Source of the DNA: Candidatus Omnitrophota bacterium
GTDB taxonomy: Bacteria; Omnitrophota; Gorgyraeia; Gygaellales; Profunditerraquicolaceae
NCBI GenBank assembly: GCA_028715415.1
Contig: JAQURX010000007.1
Location: 11,898-75,897 of the forward strand
Length of the DNA stretch: 64,000 bases
Reading direction: 5' to 3'
The position numbers and the translations under genes were made by a program. Shown here in pieces: positions 10,090 to 63,701 of the stretch (its first letter is position 1; each line of letters opens with the position of its first letter). A model generated the notes under the pieces. The model was not told where the DNA came from, made no database searches, and worked only from the letters and a program-made list of their open reading frames with translations.

Positions 10090-10578
10090 ATTATTACTAC
10101 ACATTCTTTTAATGAATCTGCCACCTTTTCTCGCTCAGGTAGATTTTGCCCCGCCTTTGGCGGGGGGCCGCCAAAGGTCTTTCGCATTTCGGTGGCTGCT
10201 GAACTCGCGCCTCGTGTTCTCACTCGGCGCTCGAACAGCATCGCCATCCCGATATTGTCCCGCATTCGCGGGACATCGGGATTCCCTCAATGCTCAAGCT
10301 GCTTTGGCTAAAATCTACATTCGCTCGAAAAGCCGACAGATTCATTTAATAACATGATTAGAATTTTAGTATTTTGATTCGAGGCGCATTAGAAAACTTT
10401 CGGCAATGGCTATAACCGGTAGTGCGCAAAGATTTACGAGGAGCGAAGGACGGCTCCCAAGAGAACGCTAAGCCGAAGCGACGTGGTAAATCGCAGCGCA
10501 CGGCGAAAGTTTTCAGCGCCGAGAACAAAATACTAAAATTAAACGAGTGATAAACAAGACAAGGCAGACGCGTGAGCG
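10090..10578. repeat. GC-rich composite repeat element, copy A (core module 10422-10523 in + orientation; 15-bp inverted repeat 10362-10376 / 10526-10540 flanks the core)
   Basis: Shares with 34503-34928 and 63188-63652 a ~100-bp core (gtgcgcaaagatttacgaggagcgaaggacggctcc...gtaaatcgcagcgcac...) and a terminal module aacaagacaaggcagacgcg. GC content is far above the flanking genome, and the reading frame is not conserved between copies. Confidence 0.8.
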
Positions 10579-21550: not shown

Positions 21551-21680
21551 ATCTTCGGGGTCCTGCCAATATTAGGCAGGAGGTGAAATTCCTGACCGGC
21601 GGTTAAGCCCGCAAGCCTTAAAAAGGCATGATCTGGTAAAATTCCAGAGCCGATTGTATAGTCTAGATGAGAGAAGGTTA
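21551..21680 (+). promoter_or_regulatory. FMN riboswitch (RFN element) aptamer
   Basis: cttcggggtcctgcc...ggaggtgaaattcctgaccggcggtt...gatctggtaaaattccagagccgattgtatagtctagatgagagaagg matches the conserved RFN strands. It lies 5' of ribBA. Confidence 0.9.
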
Positions 21681-21692
21681 AAAGTAAATTAT

Positions 21693-21727
21693 ACCCGGAG
21701 AACTATCTTCGGGTTTCTTATTTTTGG
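21693..21727 (+). terminator. riboswitch expression-platform attenuator hairpin plus U-tract (acccggagaactatcttcgggtttcttattttt)
   Basis: Stem ACCCG/CGGGU followed by a T-rich run, between the aptamer and the ribBA RBS. Confidence 0.55.
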
Positions 21728-21734
21728 AGAGCTT

Positions 21735-22943
21735 ATGTTTAATTCCATATCAGAGATATTAGAAGATCTTAAGCAAGGCAAGATGGTTATTGTGGTAGAT
21801 GACGAAGACCGCGAGAACGAAGGCGATCTTTTAATGTCCGCAAGTTTTGCCAAGCCTCAGGATATAAATTTCATGGCTAAGTTTGGCAGGGGGCTTATTT
21901 GTGTCCCTATGAAAGAAGATCGTTTAAGCCAACTGGAATTTGAGCCTATGTTAAAGAAAGCAGGGGTTGCTAAGGAAGATCCTTTTGCAACTGCCTGGAT
22001 GATTTCAGCTGATGCGGCTTCCGGTATAACTACCGGCATTTCTGCGTATGATCGTGCGCATACAATTGAAACATTGATTAACCCGCAATCAAAGCCCGAA
22101 GATTTAATTCGTCCGGGGCACATCTTTCCTTTAAGAGCTCGTCGTGGCGGAGTATTAGTCAGAGCAGGGCATACTGAAGCTGCGGTTGACCTAATGAGGC
22201 TTTGTGGCTTATATGAGGCGGGAGTAATCTGTGAAATTATGAATGATGATGGCTCTATGTCCCGCCTTCCGCAATTAATTGAATTTTCAAAAAAGCATTC
22301 GTTAAAGATTTGCACAATTGCTAACTTGATTGAATACCGAAGGCGCTCTGAAAAACTAATTGAACGTTTGACTGAGACAATCCTTCCTACTGAGTTTGGA
22401 AAATATAAATTAATTTTATACCGTGATTTGACAAATAATAAAGTTCATAGTGCTTTAGTTATGGGGGAATTAAAAGAGCCTCAAGTCTTAGTGCGGGTGC
22501 ATTCCGAATGTATGACAGGGGATGTTTTCGGCTCTTTGCGCTGTGATTGCGGAAGGCAATTGAAACAGGCAATGCAATCAATCGATAAAATTAAAAGCGG
22601 AGTTGTGCTTTATATGAGCCAGGAAGGCCGTGGAATCGGGCTTGTCGAAAAGATTAAGGCTTACAATTTGCAGGATAAAGGTATGGATACGGTTGAGGCC
22701 AATGAAGCATTAGGGCATGCTGCGGATCTTAGGGATTATGGGATAGGCGCGCAGATCCTGGTAGATTTAGGGATCAAAGAAATCCGCCTTCTTACAAATA
22801 ATCCTCGTAAGATTGTAGGGCTTGAGGGATACGGGTTAAAGGTGGTTGAGCGCGTTCCTCTGGAGGTTGAGCCTAATGCGGCAAATTATAATTATCTTAA
22901 AACAAAAAAAGAGAAGTTAGGGCACAATTTGAATATAGAATAA
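21735..22943 (+). CDS. ribBA: bifunctional 3,4-dihydroxy-2-butanone-4-phosphate synthase / GTP cyclohydrolase II
   Basis: The N-terminus [32 protein letters not shown] is the RibB start, and the C-terminal half carries the GCH II CxxC...C region (CDCGRQ). The start was moved from the track's TTG at 21654, which lies inside the riboswitch, to the ATG at 21735. Confidence 0.9.
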
Positions 22944-25765: not shown

Positions 25766-26332
25766 ATGTTCTCAGGGATTGTTGAAGAATTAGGAGTTGT
25801 TAGGAGTATTTCAAAGCGTGGGGCAGTTAATATTATAGAAATAGAGGCGAAAAAAGTTTTGATTGATGTAAAAATTGGAGATAGTATTGCGGTAAATGGC
25901 GTGTGCTTGACAGCCGTAAAGCAAAAAGATAATTTGTTGTCATTTGAGGCAATGTCGGAGACTCTAAAGGTTACTAATCTCGGGGTTTTAAGGATAGGAG
26001 AAAAGGTAAATCTTGAGCGCAGCCTAAAGATAGGGGATCGTTTATCCGGGCATTTTGTTTATGGCCATGTTGATTGCTCGGGGGTAGTGCGTAAGAAAAA
26101 TAATCTTAATGGTAATCTATGTTTTGAAATAGCTATCCCTCCTAAATTCTTAGGGTGGGTTATTCCAAAGGGTTCGGTAGCAATTGATGGTATAAGTTTA
26201 ACGATAGTTGATAGAAAGCCGGGAACTTTAAGGGTTTATATTATTCCTCATACATTAGCGAATACAACGTTAGGTTTTAAAGGAGTTGGTAGCAAGGTTA
26301 ATATTGAATTTGACATCCTCGCCAAAAACTAG
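25766..26332 (+). CDS. ribE: riboflavin synthase (alpha subunit)
   Basis: MFSGIVEELG N-terminus and duplicated lumazine-binding halves. Confidence 0.9.
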   Translation: MFSGIVEELGVVRSISKRGAVNIIEIEAKKVLIDVKIGDSIAVNGVCLTAVKQKDNLLSFEAMSETLKVTNLGVLRIGEKVNLERSLKIGDRLSGHFVYGHVDCSGVVRKKNNLNGNLCFEIAIPPKFLGWVIPKGSVAIDGISLTIVDRKPGTLRVYIIPHTLANTTLGFKGVGSKVNIEFDILAKN

Positions 26333-26395
26333 GGGACGGTTCTATTTTTTCTAGAACTCAATTCTTCAAAAAATAGAACCGTCCCCTGTTTTTAT
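26332..26395. terminator. long bidirectional rho-independent terminator (19-bp perfect stem ggggacggttctatttttt / aaaaaatagaaccgtcccc, U-tract after)
   Basis: Perfect inverted repeat read from the sequence, followed by tgtttttatt. Confidence 0.7.
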
Positions 26396-26441: not shown

Positions 26442-26515
26442 CGGGGCGTGGCTCAGTTTGGTAGAGCGCAGCGTTCGGGACGCTGAGGCCGACAGTTCAA
26501 GTCTGTCCGCCCCGA
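26442..26515 (+). tRNA. tRNA-Pro (anticodon CGG)
   Basis: Cloverleaf: acceptor cggggcg/cgccccg, D-arm gctc-agtttggta-gagc, anticodon arm cagcg-ttCGGga-cgctg, T-arm gacag-ttcaagt-ctgtc. It resembles E. coli tRNA-Pro(CGG), and CCA is not encoded. Confidence 0.85.
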
Positions 26516-34481: not shown

Positions 34482-34502
34482 GATTTTTCTATTGTTACTT
34501 CT

Positions 34503-34928
34503 AAATATTCTTTTAATGAATCCGCCGTTTTTAAGTTTGAATTTTAGTGTTTCGCTTTCGGCGCTGAAAATTTTTGCCGTGCGCTGCGATTTACCGCGTC
34601 GCTTCGGCTTAGCATTCTCTTGGGAGCCGTCCTTCGCTCCTCGTAAATCTTTGCGCACTAATCTTAATAGCTGTGCCAAAAATTTTCTAATGCGCCTCCA
34701 GCAAAACACTAAAATTCATATTCGCTCGAATAAACAACAGATTCATTAAAAATAGTAAAGATATTAGCGGCTGACTTGGCTTGATTCTCGCAGCATGTAG
34801 TTTGTGCGAGCGGCCATGGTTCACCCGCTATAAACTCCAGTGAGAGCGAGCGCAAACTCCAAGCGAGTCCCGCCACGGTGGGGCGGGACGAGCGGTGCTG
34901 CGAGAACAAGACAAGGCAGACGCGACAA
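34503..34928. repeat. GC-rich composite repeat element, copy B (core 34557-34658 inverted relative to copy A; 13-bp inverted repeat 34540-34552 / 34704-34716 flanks the core)
   Basis: The reverse complement of 34557-34658 is ~93% identical to 10422-10523. It shares the left module attcttttaatgaatcYgcc and the right module gagaacaagacaaggcagacgcg with copy A. Confidence 0.8.
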
Positions 34929-34940
34929 GTATAATTTATT

Positions 34941-35879
34941 ATGAAAGTAATCTGTGGGTTAAATAAGATTAAGAAATTCCCCAAGCCGGTAGTTTGCCTT
35001 GGGGTTTTTGATGGGATGCATCTTGGCCACATTAGGATTTTAAAAGATGCTGTTAAGACTGCCCGGAGAATAAATGGGACAAGCATCGTTGTAACCTTCT
35101 GTCCGCATCCGCAGAAAAAAGAAAGTTTGTATTCATTAGAGCATAGGCTTAGGTTGATTGCAGAGCAGGGAGTTCAAGTCTGCATTGTTATAAATTTCAC
35201 AGAAAGTTTTGCTAAAACCCTTGCTTATGATTTTGTTAAAGAAATCGTACATGATAAAATTGGCGCAAATTTTGTTTATGTCGGAAAGAATTTTCGTTTC
35301 GGTAAGCATGCCGCAGGCAGTGTTAATTTCTTAAGAAAATTATCCTCCGAATTCAATTTTAAATTGAAATCTTTTGGAGTGCTTAATAGCGACGGAAAGC
35401 CAATCAGTAGTACTTTGATACGTAATTTAAATAAGTCTGGAAAATTAAGTTACGCGGAAAGAGTCTTAGGCCGTCCTGTAAGCGTCCTTGGAACTGTTGT
35501 CCATGGAAATTCTATTGCAAGAAAATTGGGATACTCAACCGCAAACATTAATCCGCATCATGAAGTAATCCCCCCGACGGGTGTTTATGCAGTTGAGGCG
35601 ATTTTAGAGAAAGAGAGATTAAGAGGAATCTGCAATATTGGCGTTCGCCCTACCTTTAGGAAGCCAGGGCCTATAGATGATAGCGCAAAGCATATTGAAG
35701 TGCATGTTTTTAATTTTCACAGGAATATTTATGGAAAATATATTGAGATTCAGTTTTTTAAGAAGATAAGAGAAGAGGTAAAATTCAAAAACTCCTCTTT
35801 ATTAATTAAACAAATTAAAAAAGACATTAATAAAGTCAAAAGCCTGTTTCATCTCCCCAAGAAACACCACAATATATAG
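34941..35879 (+). CDS. ribF: bifunctional riboflavin kinase / FMN adenylyltransferase
   Basis: GVFDGMHLGHIRIL FAD synthetase motif and a C-terminal riboflavin kinase domain. Confidence 0.9.
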   Translation: MKVICGLNKIKKFPKPVVCLGVFDGMHLGHIRILKDAVKTARRINGTSIVVTFCPHPQKKESLYSLEHRLRLIAEQGVQVCIVINFTESFAKTLAYDFVKEIVHDKIGANFVYVGKNFRFGKHAAGSVNFLRKLSSEFNFKLKSFGVLNSDGKPISSTLIRNLNKSGKLSYAERVLGRPVSVLGTVVHGNSIARKLGYSTANINPHHEVIPPTGVYAVEAILEKERLRGICNIGVRPTFRKPGPIDDSAKHIEVHVFNFHRNIYGKYIEIQFFKKIREEVKFKNSSLLIKQIKKDINKVKSLFHLPKKHHNI

Positions 35880-52892: not shown

Positions 52893-52926
52893 TTAAAATT
52901 TGCGTTACTAGTTTTTTGTCATTCCC

Positions 52927-52990
52927 GCGAATGCGGGAATCTACGCTATATAGTGGATCCCTGCTTCCGCAGGGATGACAGTGTTACAAT
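52927..52990 (+). other. structured GC-rich element: outer stem tgtcat/atgaca enclosing two hairpins (attcccgc-gaat-gcgggaat and atccctgc-ttcc-gcagggat)
   Basis: Perfect inverted repeats read from the sequence in the ftsA-yggS gap. Its function is unknown (terminator or sRNA). Confidence 0.4.
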
Positions 52991-53026
52991 CTAGCTCCAA
53001 GTAAACGGTCTTTGCCTATTATTTTA

Positions 53027-53054
53027 ACACTATCCATTGACCCATAGGTTTTAT
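53027..53054 (+). promoter_or_regulatory. sigma70-type promoter (TTGACC-N16-TATAAT) upstream of yggS
   Basis: Consensus hexamers ~25 nt upstream of the yggS start. Confidence 0.55.
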
Positions 53055-53078
53055 CGTGTATAATACTATTCCTGAAGT

Positions 53079-53750
53079 ATGGTTAAAGATAATTTAAAGA
53101 AGATTAGAGAACGTATTTTTTCGGTTTGCGCTAAAATTAAGCGTAATCCCGAAACGATAACCATAGTTGCTGTTTCTAAGGGTAGAACTCTTGAGCAAAT
53201 CAAGGAAGCCATTGCCGCAGGCCTATATAATATAGGAGAGAATAGGGTTCAGGAAGCGCTAACCAAATCCAACGAACAGCGAGCCAAATGGCATATGGTT
53301 GGCCATCTTCAGACCAATAAGGTTAAAGAAGCTGTAAAGATCTTTGATTTGATTCATTCGGTGGATAGCTTGCGTCTGGCAGAGGAAATTGATAAACAGG
53401 CAAAAGCATTAGATAAGATTCAGGACATACTAATTGAAGTAAAAACTTCTCCTGAAGCAACGAAATTTGGTTTTAATCCGGATGAAGTTTCCGGAGCGGT
53501 TAAACAAATTTCTGCTTTAATGAATGTGCGGGTATTAGGTTTGATGACTATAGCTCCCGCAGTTGATAACCCAGAAGAAGCCCGTCCTTATTTCCGTCAA
53601 TTGCGGGAATTAAGGGATTCAATTAATTCTTTGCAGCTTGAAACTTGCAGTTTGAAACTTCTTTCTATGGGGATGACTGATGATTTTGAGGTTGCGATAG
53701 AAGAAGGCTCTGATATGGTGCGATTAGGAAAAGCGATATTTGAAGGTTAA
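53079..53750 (+). CDS. yggS: YggS-family pyridoxal-phosphate homeostasis protein
   Basis: Alanine-racemase N-terminal-domain-like fold, AVSKGR PLP-lysine motif; ~220 aa. Confidence 0.85.
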   Translation: MVKDNLKKIRERIFSVCAKIKRNPETITIVAVSKGRTLEQIKEAIAAGLYNIGENRVQEALTKSNEQRAKWHMVGHLQTNKVKEAVKIFDLIHSVDSLRLAEEIDKQAKALDKIQDILIEVKTSPEATKFGFNPDEVSGAVKQISALMNVRVLGLMTIAPAVDNPEEARPYFRQLRELRDSINSLQLETCSLKLLSMGMTDDFEVAIEEGSDMVRLGKAIFEG

Positions 53751-54584: not shown

Positions 54585-54604
54585 TTTAATTTTGATACTT
54601 TTCA

Positions 54605-54633
54605 CTTGAAATTTGAAACCTGAAACTTGAAAC
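54605..54633 (+). repeat. tandem array of four TTGAAA(C) heptamer/octamer units (cttgaaa-tttgaaac-ctgaaac-ttgaaac) between proC and mtnP
   Basis: Direct repeats read from the sequence; the same unit recurs at 59166-59237. Confidence 0.6.
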
Positions 54634-54655
54634 AAGCATTTCTAAGGAGACTATT

Positions 54656-58727: not shown

Positions 58728-59159
58728 ATGATTCAAATCATCGTAATATCCGTCCTTTTTTTAGACCAACTCACAAAATTTCTTGTTGTTAAAAATCTTG
58801 CCTTGGGTAGTTCTATCCCCATAATCAACGGGATTTTCCATCTAAGCCTTGTCCATAATAAGGGAGCCGCCTTTGGAATCTTAAAGAATCAGGTTCCGTT
58901 TTTAATCGCCACTTCTTTATTTACCATTATTTTATTTTATTTCGCCTTAAAGGATAATAAGCATAAAATATTTTACTGTGTATCTTTAAGCCTTGTTTTG
59001 GCGGGTGCTCTTGGTAATCTCATTGACAGGGTGCGTGTCGGATATGTCATAGATTTCCTTGATTTTCGCATCTGGCCTGTATTTAATATCGCTGACAGCG
59101 CGATAACTATCGGAGCTGTAATGTTGGGGTGGTCTATATTAACGGAGAAAGAAAAGTAG
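58728..59159 (+). CDS. lspA: lipoprotein signal peptidase II
   Basis: Four-TM protein with NKGAAFG and FNIADSAI motifs, in ileS-lspA synteny. Confidence 0.9.
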   Translation: MIQIIVISVLFLDQLTKFLVVKNLALGSSIPIINGIFHLSLVHNKGAAFGILKNQVPFLIATSLFTIILFYFALKDNKHKIFYCVSLSLVLAGALGNLIDRVRVGYVIDFLDFRIWPVFNIADSAITIGAVMLGWSILTEKEK

Positions 59160-59165
59160 TTCCAA

Positions 59166-59237
59166 GTTTCAAGTTGCAAGTTTCAGGTTTCAAGCATTTA
59201 ATCTTGAACCTTGAAACTTGAAACTTGAATCTTGAAA
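59166..59237. repeat. long imperfect hairpin built from heptamer repeats: 4x GTTTCAAG-like units, loop catttaat, 5x CTTGAAAC-like units
   Basis: gtttcaag ttgcaag tttcagg tttcaag | catttaat | cttgaac cttgaaac ttgaaac ttgaat cttgaaac. It lies between lspA and lgt and is related to the 54605-54633 array. Confidence 0.65.
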
Positions 59238-63187: not shown

Positions 63188-63652
63188 GGTTCCGCGTCTG
63201 CCTTGTCTTCTGTTTTCTCGGGGACGCTTATTTTGCCCCTGCGAGGCAAAATTTCGCTCCCCTGCGGTGCCTCGCTCTGCCTACTTTCTATTTAGCTGGG
63301 CATCCGTGCCCGCTCGGCATCCTCGGAGGCCCCGATAAAACAAAAGCCAAGCCATCCGCTGAAACAGATTATCTATAGCTTTATGGTTTTTGCGGACGGC
63401 ACATTAGAAGATTTTTGGCACAGCTACTAACACTAGTGCGCAAGGATTTACGAGGAGCGGAGGACAGCTACAAGAGAACGCTAAGCCGTAGCGACGAAGT
63501 AAACCGCAGCGCACGGCAAAAATCTTCAGTGCCGGAAGCGAAAACCATAAAGCAAAAGTATAAAGAGCGGTGCTGCGAGAAACAGCCCAGCGAGGGCGCA
63601 CTTGCCAATCCGATATGGCAAGGTGCAAGACAAGGCAGACGCGGAACTACTA
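63188..63652. repeat. GC-rich composite repeat element, copy C (core 63437-63536 in + orientation; 22-bp terminal inverted repeats ttccgcgtctgccttgtcttc / gcaagacaaggcagacgcggaa)
   Basis: The core is ~88% identical to 10422-10523. Both ends carry the gacaaggcagacgcg module in inverted orientation, giving a MITE-like architecture. The element is GC-rich within an AT-rich genome. Confidence 0.8.
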
Positions 63653-63672: not shown

Positions 63673-63701
63673 TTGACATAGGGTTTAATCTCTGGTAGAA
63701 T
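63673..63701 (+). promoter_or_regulatory. sigma70-type promoter (TTGACA-N17-TAGAAT) for mreB
   Basis: Consensus hexamers ~50 nt upstream of the mreB ATG. Confidence 0.55.

Follow-up and report, generated by a model that had tools for sequence, protein, structure and literature searches.

Arrays of three families of non-coding hairpin repeats in intergenic spacers of a Candidatus Omnitrophota genome

Three GC-rich intergenic blocks in a 64-kb stretch of a Candidatus Omnitrophota genome (contig JAQURX010000007.1; this whole stretch is called the window below) are arrays of up to three separate families of non-coding hairpin repeats, H (~180 nt), T (~160 nt) and G (~265 nt). The blocks lie at 10091-10572 (site A, between addB and a gene for a secreted protein), 34495-34924 (site B, between a DUF2934 gene and ribF) and 63193-63643 (site C, between aroA and mreB). 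Together they hold three H, four T and two G pieces, and dozens more were found in related contigs. The hosts are Omnitrophota, and the families are common to a Candidatus Omnitrophota clade. The explanation that we rank first, with a probability of roughly 0.55, is that the modules are non-autonomous mobile or recombining hairpin DNA repeats of the same kind as miniature inverted-repeat transposable elements (MITEs), bacterial interspersed mosaic elements (BIMEs), Correia elements and ERIC sequences. The original prediction, which was made from the letters of the window, had described a single mosaic element of 430-490 bp with one core. The features that it listed for the three blocks were all present, far above chance, including the high GC content (0.46-0.52 in 400-nt bins compared with ~0.33-0.42 in the surroundings; 0.58-0.61 in the T modules). 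Its view of one element did not hold because H, T and G occur alone and in varied orders and orientations in other Omnitrophota contigs. The modules and associated features of the three sites are as follows; R1 and R2 are the covariance models of H and T, and A4 and A5 are the alignments of T and G.

10091..10355, plus strand: full-length G module, a multi-branched hairpin closed by the stem X/X'; homology to other loci, alignment A5.
10104-10122, plus strand: arm X of the G closing stem of site A, TTCTTTTAATGAATCTGCC.
10333-10350, plus strand: arm X' of the G closing stem of site A, GACAGATTCATTTAATAA.
10362..10542, plus strand: H module; R1 209 bits; minimum free energy (MFE) -72.9 kcal/mol, z -8.4.
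10553..10572, plus strand: T right-end fragment alone, AACAAGACAAGGCAGACGCG; an exact 17-mer, with the homology stopping precisely at ...GACGCG.
34495..34526, plus strand: fragment of the G 5' end (arm X), 84% identical to 10091-10122; pairs with 34737-34750.
34538..34716, minus strand: H module, nested between two G ends; R1 216 bits on the minus strand.
34709..34750, plus strand: fragment of the G 3' end, CTAAAATTCATATTCGCTCGAATAAACAACAGATTCATTAAA, including X'; 81% identical to 10308-10349, a block kept in all of the G copies of A5.
34765..34924, plus strand: full-length T module, TAGCGGCTGACTTGGCTTG ... CAAGACAAGGCAGACGCG; R2 134 bits, alignment A4; 16 nt upstream of the ribF ATG.
63193..63361, minus strand: full-length T module; R2 133 bits on the minus strand, A4; begins 10 nt past the aroA stop codon.
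63377..63556, plus strand: H module with a 1-nt deletion in its core; R1 196 bits, fold and frame analysis.
63565..63643, plus strand: truncated T consisting of GAGCGGTGCTGCGAGAA, a 45-nt insert and the right end AAGACAAGGCAGACGCG; repeat search and BLAST between the sites.
63673..63701, plus strand: mreB promoter TTGACA-17-TAGAAT, outside of the repeats; marks the right edge of the insertion and is kept in element-free relatives.

The H module is what had been predicted as a conserved core. A pattern search for TTACGAGGAGCG...GCTAAGCCG gave exactly three occurrences in the window and none in 100 shuffles. The length is ~180 nt and not ~100, and copy B is inverted (34538-34716, minus strand), while A and C are on the plus strand. 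Pairwise identity was 83-87% over 183-185 nt in a small-word BLAST, with a mean column identity of 88%, as compared with the predicted 88-93% over ~100 bp. The ends GTGCGC/GCGCAC and GATTTAC/GTAAATC pair as had been proposed, within a far longer hairpin, which represents one of three independent structured families. Each window copy folds as RNA with an MFE of -73 to -76 kcal/mol (z ~ -8 against dinucleotide shuffles), and the three copies differ at seven stem positions that are altered on both sides with the pairing kept. Over eight copies (alignment A3), 95% of the cells are paired and 19 of the 53 pairs show double changes; none of 500 shuffles was as good. G:U pairs are scarce (~6 of 402 cells). 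Outside of the window, H was found with R1 at 68-96 bits in the metagenome loci L024, L040, L053, L063, L067, L070, L071 and L074.

Relatives of T were gathered by a metagenome scan with the exact 18-mer CAAGACAAGGCAGACGCG, which returned 51 loci. About 22 of these, all with a low GC content (0.39-0.47), share a further 70-160 nt of upstream homology, which in every one of them stops precisely at ...GACGCG; the other loci with the 18-mer are coincidences in coding sequences. T is thus a module of ~160 nt, TAGCGGATGGCTTGGCTTG...CAAGACAAGGCAGACGCG (alignment A4, 15 copies), with a length range of 57-168 nt. The shared terminal module AAGACAAGGCAGACGCG of the original prediction is its right end, present in four exact copies at 10556, 34908 and 63627 (plus strand) and 63193 (minus strand), where 0.07 would be expected by chance, and BLAST between the sites confirmed that GAGCGGTGCTGCGAGAA is common to copies B and C. 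Paired positions make up 97% of the cells, 11 of the 39 pairs are changed on both sides, and no shuffle or slid register came close. The ends form 16 terminal pairs and differ at four to five fixed positions (GCGGATGGCTTGGCTTG against the reverse complement GCGTCTGCCTTGTCTTG), which makes left and right distinct; in the closing stem of the sense strand these are the conserved mismatches G.A, A.G, G.G and G.A, and the ends are therefore not true inverted repeats. The subtypes T2-T4 have different yet still complementary termini, short forms of 57-70 nt keep the ends alone (L027, L053 and L034), and isolated right or left halves exist. The apparent inverted repeat of 22-36 bp around site C, which under a single-element view would be the 22-bp terminal repeat of one MITE, is formed by two opposed T modules (63193, minus; 63565, plus).

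Four GAGCG pentamers are found in the T consensus, where ~0.3 would be expected, and H has one or two of them; the complement CGCTC is present in G on the plus strand. In the usual G(+)/H(-)...T(+) arrays, GAGCG points in opposite ways on the two sides, an arrangement that may resemble subterminal binding sites. At L023 (5331-5420), a 28-nt fragment of the T right end lies between a ~32-nt duplicate of the 5' end of the downstream gene and its real start; this duplication is unusually long for a T junction and fits none of the models considered. Two candidate identities for T were rejected. A likeness of its end to E. coli 4.5S RNA received no support from the covariance models of the signal recognition particle RNA, and a guide RNA of TnpB/IscB (omega RNA, HEARO) was discarded since the neighbouring open reading frames (ORFs) are not TnpB/IscB and the HEARO-type Rfam models gave no match.

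The G module of ~265 nt is closed by a TTTTAATGAATCTG / CAGATTCATT stem. Homologues were found using blastn in seven loci (L034, L027, L033, L068, L026, L074 and L035) at 70-85% identity, with the best matches to 10091-10355 in L034 (85% over 182 nt) and L027 (72% over 239 nt). Alignment A5 has 54 consensus pairs, of which 18 show compensatory changes. The modules also nest: in site B the H(-) sits between the two G ends, and in L074 a G(-) lies inside a T2. A covariance check had been proposed with the original prediction, and it revealed compensatory changes in each of the families. Such changes are expected of DNA hairpins too, hence covariation does not show that RNA is the active form.

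A coding origin of the blocks is excluded. Mechanical ORFs of 81-125 aa overlap the blocks, and one could regard them as small proteins or as pseudogene remnants of a duplicated gene. We give this practically no probability: the 1-nt indel in the C core shifts every frame, B is inverted, each frame is interrupted by stops in at least one copy, and the substitutions are compensatory in stems, not synonymous. This agrees with the non-coding nature that had been predicted. Additionally, a six-frame chimeric peptide query of the H core, which was also meant to recover spurious ORF calls over other copies, had no match in any of the six frames among 5.8 billion proteins. Of the outcomes that had been named in advance as contradicting the prediction, a conserved reading frame and a clean Rfam match did not turn up, and just as no RNA family could be named then, Rfam 15 run over the whole window at gathering thresholds returned an FMN riboswitch and one tRNA only and did not match the modules. 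Permissive Rfam scans (E up to 10) of sites A and C gave chance-level matches with E of at least 0.3, far under the thresholds. Site C had no blastn match to plasmids and phages; viral contig scans with H and T patterns gave chance matches (a T 17-mer inside a long phage ORF, with the others rejected by R2). A genome contig scan with the window-type H core pattern gave a single chance match, in a Clostridia coding region, and since that pattern is too specific to the window subfamily, the scan does not establish absence from the GTDB representatives; the strict H pattern had 0 matches in metagenome contigs. Literature and Rfam searches found no account of these elements, nor of interspersed repeats in Omnitrophota.

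The search for copies beyond the window, also proposed with the prediction, showed that H, T and G all recur in Candidatus Omnitrophota metagenome contigs. The AroA encoded in the window matches a protein from a Candidatus Omnitrophica metagenome-assembled genome (MAG) at 100% identity, with the next relatives at ~64%, and the T-bearing locus L027 encodes an acetyl-CoA synthase whose best matches are all from Candidatus Omnitrophota MAGs. Comparison with relatives revealed presence/absence polymorphism at three orthologous sites, aroA-mreB, folD-MTHFR and queA-tgt. The aroA-mreB spacer is 118-210 nt long and element-free in relatives and 570 nt long in the window. In L006 and L004, the mreB promoter (TTTTTATTTGACA-N17-TAGAAT) stands almost directly after aroA, and because the same promoter lies just past site C, this site represents ~470 bp inserted after the aroA stop codon and before the promoter. 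Moreover, Logan short-read contigs of the source sample break precisely at the module edges, as is expected of multi-copy repeats.

Six Omnitrophota loci (L070-L075, ~127 kb) were fetched through a protein, so they are unbiased for repeats; H and T were sought there with covariance models and G with blastn. They hold four T (R2), one T4 variant recognised by eye, three H and one G (L074), all of them in two spacers, folD-MTHFR and queA-tgt. The states of these spacers, including those in further loci, were:

folD-MTHFR, element-free: 7 nt in L072, 25 nt in L070 and 37 nt in L075.
folD-MTHFR, L074: full H(-) and T(+).
folD-MTHFR, L053: full H(-) and a short T.
folD-MTHFR, L046: short H(-) and a full T.
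folD-MTHFR, L027: G and a short T.
folD-MTHFR, L073: a deletion remnant of ~85 nt with the outer H terminus and the T right end only.
queA-tgt, L072: 93 nt, made up of an 88-nt T variant that starts with the queA stop codon TAG.
queA-tgt, L071: H(-), a 435-aa ORFan and T(+) ending 16 nt before tgt.
queA-tgt, L070: H(-), a 225-aa ORFan, an HNH nuclease, T(+), ORF6N and a T2 half.
queA-tgt, L019: an array of ORFans (DUF5677, PDC-S31-like) punctuated by T, with the last T 14 nt before tgt.

In L070, L071, L074 and L019, the queA-tgt spacer spans several kb of ORFan genes bounded by H and T. Several of the metagenome loci are mutually orthologous, so the counts of independent events are small, and the E-values of the covariance models, which were calibrated briefly, are rough. 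A further T end was observed in L065 (232-323), 74 nt upstream of a gene that is 58% identical to the window ORF 53079-53750; covariance model and blastn scans of the whole window gave no T, H or G in the counterpart spacer, 52893-53078.

The reading of the modules as mobile or recombining DNA repeats rests on their intergenic restriction, presence and absence at orthologous sites, nesting, termini that are kept over interiors, deletions that keep the termini, and the multi-copy state. All copies lie in intergenic spacers. Internal deletions, through which the modules decay, leave the termini in place, and the ends are more conserved than the interiors. With regard to MITEs, the modules are 57-265 nt long, have no conserved frame and are multi-copy. 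From the suggestion that the blocks are a MITE, a structured non-coding RNA or both, the repeated, covarying structure and the MITE-like presence/absence at aroA-mreB were borne out, while a target-site duplication and a transposase were not found in the loci examined.

Several points weigh against mobility. No direct repeat that could be a target-site duplication is common to 24 T copies or to the H-T units. TA or TAG flanks both sides in about half of the T copies, which is ambiguous in AT-rich DNA; of the right flanks of T, those of 4 locus groups begin with TTA, those of 9 with TA and those of 3 with AAA, and the left flanks show no conservation. Recent transposition would be proved by pairs of exact or near-exact copies, and none were recovered. 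The ~0.3 Mb of loci examined showed neither a transposase or integrase nor a RAYT-like gene, and no autonomous relative with a transposase and the same ends was found in these loci. The module scans of the source genome cover the 64 kb of the window. Due to the ascertainment with an exact 18-mer, the conservation of the T right end is partly built in and the sample is biased. T is co-oriented with the flanking genes in ~15 of the 22 independent placements (one-sided binomial ~0.07, not significant), and the sense strand folds better than its complement in all 15 T and all 11 H copies; this folding and the strand bias of T would fit selection on RNA or single strands too.

These strand effects bear on an alternative in which the modules are cis-acting RNA elements of polycistronic mRNAs, that is, intercistronic processing, stability or insulator hairpins such as RNase III sites or REP stabilisers, whose spread would be secondary; transcripts would then be processed at the sharp 3' end of T, shortly ahead of the following start codon. 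T typically begins at or a few nt past the upstream stop codon (in L043 and L072 the TAG of T serves as this stop codon) and ends 8-17 nt before the next start codon, and those starts often have no Shine-Dalgarno sequence. Together with the excess of T placements along transcription, such positions speak for this alternative, and so do the strong covariation in all three families, the G:U-dependent strand asymmetry in every copy, the conserved purine-purine mismatches of the T closing stem, which include tandem G.A/A.G, and the complex, multi-branched and well conserved fold of G. However, the remaining 7 of the 22 T placements and most of the H placements are antisense to genes, and in H(-)T(+) units the favoured folding strands of H and T are opposite, which means that one transcript cannot carry both best-folding senses. 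Presence and absence vary between close relatives at housekeeping operons, indicating rapid turnover; the interiors are freely lost or replaced while the ends persist, half-sites are unable to fold, H has hardly any G:U pairs, and Rfam offers no match. We therefore consider a primary RNA function unlikely.

In the three sites, promoter-like and terminator-like sequences were no more numerous than in shuffles, except for the ribF junction (site B). There, the T right end and its flank make up a promoter-like match, AAGACA-16-TATAAT at 34908-34935, which stops 5 nt short of the ribF ATG. A Shine-Dalgarno sequence is absent, and this stretch (34908-34943) suggests a possible leaderless ribF transcript from a promoter at the element junction. 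The spacing of the T right end to -10-like hexamers and start codons is too variable for it to serve generally as a -35 box or as a Shine-Dalgarno sequence, and both were rejected as general roles.

The modules are also ordered. In seven independent loci (folD-MTHFR, queA-tgt, L024/L040, L063, L067, window B and window C, the last on the opposite strand), H(-) lies upstream of T(+), and either no gene or one or two genes separate them; window A is the one exception. By our own rough estimate, the probability of this order is ~4e-4 given four possible arrangements, so it is unlikely to be due to chance. The units are either empty, as in window B (H(-) 34538-34716 and T(+) 34765-34924) and, on the opposite strand, window C, or they surround one or two ORFan genes, once including an HNH nuclease. 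T alone also separates or flanks accessory genes (DUF5677, PDC-S31-like and ORF6N). The gene of the KilA-N-like ORF6N type has T-type modules on both sides in two unrelated contexts (L052 1-1230 and L070 3284-3975), and in L070 a 352-aa HNH_5 protein is encoded directly upstream of a T module. The genes that lie between H and T code for ORFans, an HNH nuclease or ORF6N, and none of the enclosed proteins is a recognisable transposase or integrase; the HNH protein matches IscB in the HNH motif alone (17 bits against a cutoff of 175).

This order raises the question of whether T, and perhaps H, could be attC-like recombination sites of an integron-like cassette system, in which a site-specific recombinase inserts and excises single ORFan or defence genes and the solitary copies between housekeeping genes are empty or secondary sites. 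The array before tgt in L019, in which ORFan genes are separated by T modules of the same orientation, would be accounted for in this way, as would the different accessory genes between H(-) and T(+) at queA-tgt in L070, L071 and L074, where L072 has just the 88-nt T variant. The two ORF6N contexts, the start of the next ORF a few nt past the site and the architecture of T itself (conserved ends, variable centre, variable length, conserved unpaired bases and no target duplication) point in the same direction. Against it, T has no attC core sites RYYYAAC / GTTRRRY, its ends being TAGCGG... / ...GACGCG with only some right flanks TTA, and neither a tyrosine recombinase nor another integrase was found in the arrays examined. 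Many copies are anti-oriented or truncated halves, the window copies lie between core genes with no cassette, and selfish repeats that pile up in accessory-gene hot spots would look alike. We regard attC-like sites as even less probable than a primary role in RNA. RNA-level and attC-like roles are both compatible with mobility.

In a related proposal, an undescribed, hairpin-dependent gene-cassette system in Omnitrophota would use H and T as its two structured ends, or as sites of recombination, and would be served by some enzyme not yet known. We put it forward tentatively and with more doubt than belief. If it were true, single ORFan or defence-type genes would be shuttled into housekeeping spacers and the empty H(-)T(+) units of the window would be unloaded sites, analogous in function to integron attC or IS200/IS605 ends and unrelated to them in sequence.

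Other phyla are known to have mosaic arrays of structured repeats interspersed in their intergenic spacers; ordered arrays of three families and the gene-bracketing H(-)...T(+) are unusual. Correia (CREE/NEMIS) elements of Neisseria and ERIC/IRU sequences of enterobacteria are non-coding intergenic repeats of 100-170 bp in which the inverted ends give rise to long hairpins. Found in either orientation, and both complete and with internal deletions, they are transcribed together with their neighbours and can produce junctions that resemble promoters. T, H and G resemble them in size class, hairpin, intergenic restriction, deletion variants and one promoter-like junction. However, the sequences share no similarity, the modules do not consistently have the TA duplication that is typical of Correia elements, the T ends have conserved asymmetric mismatches, and three families co-assemble in ordered arrays and bracket genes. 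The E. coli BIMEs (REP/PU) and the S. pneumoniae BOX elements (boxA-B-C) are likewise mosaics of structured repeats with alternating orientation in intergenic spacers, but the modules described here measure 160-265 nt against 20-60 nt (4-10 times longer), have multi-helix folds and belong to a different host phylum. REP/BIME systems with RAYT have palindromic units of 20-40 nt with a conserved 5' tetranucleotide, which flank the gene of a RAYT (Y1 transposase); no Y1_Tnp gene was found in the annotated loci, and the modules have only the mosaic arrangement in common with these systems.

The integron attC sites (e.g., the VCRs of V. cholerae) and CALIN arrays share several features with T. Such sites are imperfect palindromes in which the ends are conserved, length and centre vary, and the unpaired bases are strand-specific. 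They follow accessory genes that have no promoter, at the 3' end and in arrays of one orientation, and have no target duplication. In L019, ORFan genes are separated by co-oriented T sites, and in L070 and L071 such sites bound them; the window copies are without cassettes. In contrast to attC, the R''/R' cores are absent, there is no IntI nearby, the orientation is mixed, a second hairpin (H) marks the other side, and most of the copies, all three window sites included, are located between housekeeping genes. The ends of IS200/IS605 elements and their gene-less derivatives (PATEs and REPINs) are similar in their imperfect-hairpin ends, lack of target duplication, sharp boundaries and strand-asymmetric folding, but no gene for TnpA(Y1), TnpB or IscB lies beside any copy and there is no conserved target tetranucleotide in the left flank.

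If the modules are mobile or recombining repeats, as we prefer, an enzyme acting in trans would move them by recognising the imperfect terminal hairpins. The absence of target duplication, the conserved strand-specific mismatches of the ends and the sharp boundaries argue for a transposase or recombinase that depends on single strands or hairpins rather than a cut-and-paste DDE enzyme. As the modules lie inside strings of co-directional genes, they are probably co-transcribed with the operons and would fold into very stable RNA hairpins. These may incidentally affect mRNA stability, processing and promoter context, e.g., at the T end with TATAAT before ribF.

Omnitrophota is a widespread and almost uncultured phylum. 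The modules explain assembly breaks in its MAGs and inflate spurious ORF calls, and the covariance models built here are ready markers for strain-level variation. The ordered H(-)...T(+) units, which bracket ORFan and defence-like genes at the queA-tgt hot spot, give a handle on how accessory genes enter very compact genomes and permit testing whether, besides IntI and TnpA(Y1), there is another recombinase or transposase that recognises hairpins.

Other features of the window were observed. The FMN riboswitch (RF00050, 82 bits) lies at 21565-21682 on the plus strand; a 429-aa ORF at 21654-22943 has its mechanical start (21654) within the 3' end of the riboswitch. At 26325-26393 and 26442-26515, a near-perfect 32-nt inverted repeat, AAAACTAGGGGACGGTTCTATTTTTT / AAAAAATAGAACCGTCCCCT, resembles a bidirectional terminator and is located just upstream of the tRNA gene (65 bits); the motif GGGGACGGTTC also occurs immediately to the left of T in L019 (2721-2731) and may be a fourth small repeat. 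Clusters of TTGAAAC / GTTTCAA, heptamer-like and in tandem or inverted, stand at gene boundaries (53622-53660, 54592-54635 and 59158-59233) and could be an operator or a repeat family. Nearly all of the long ORFs are on the plus strand and the cumulative GC skew rises monotonically over the window, which places it on one replichore with a strong gene-strand bias.

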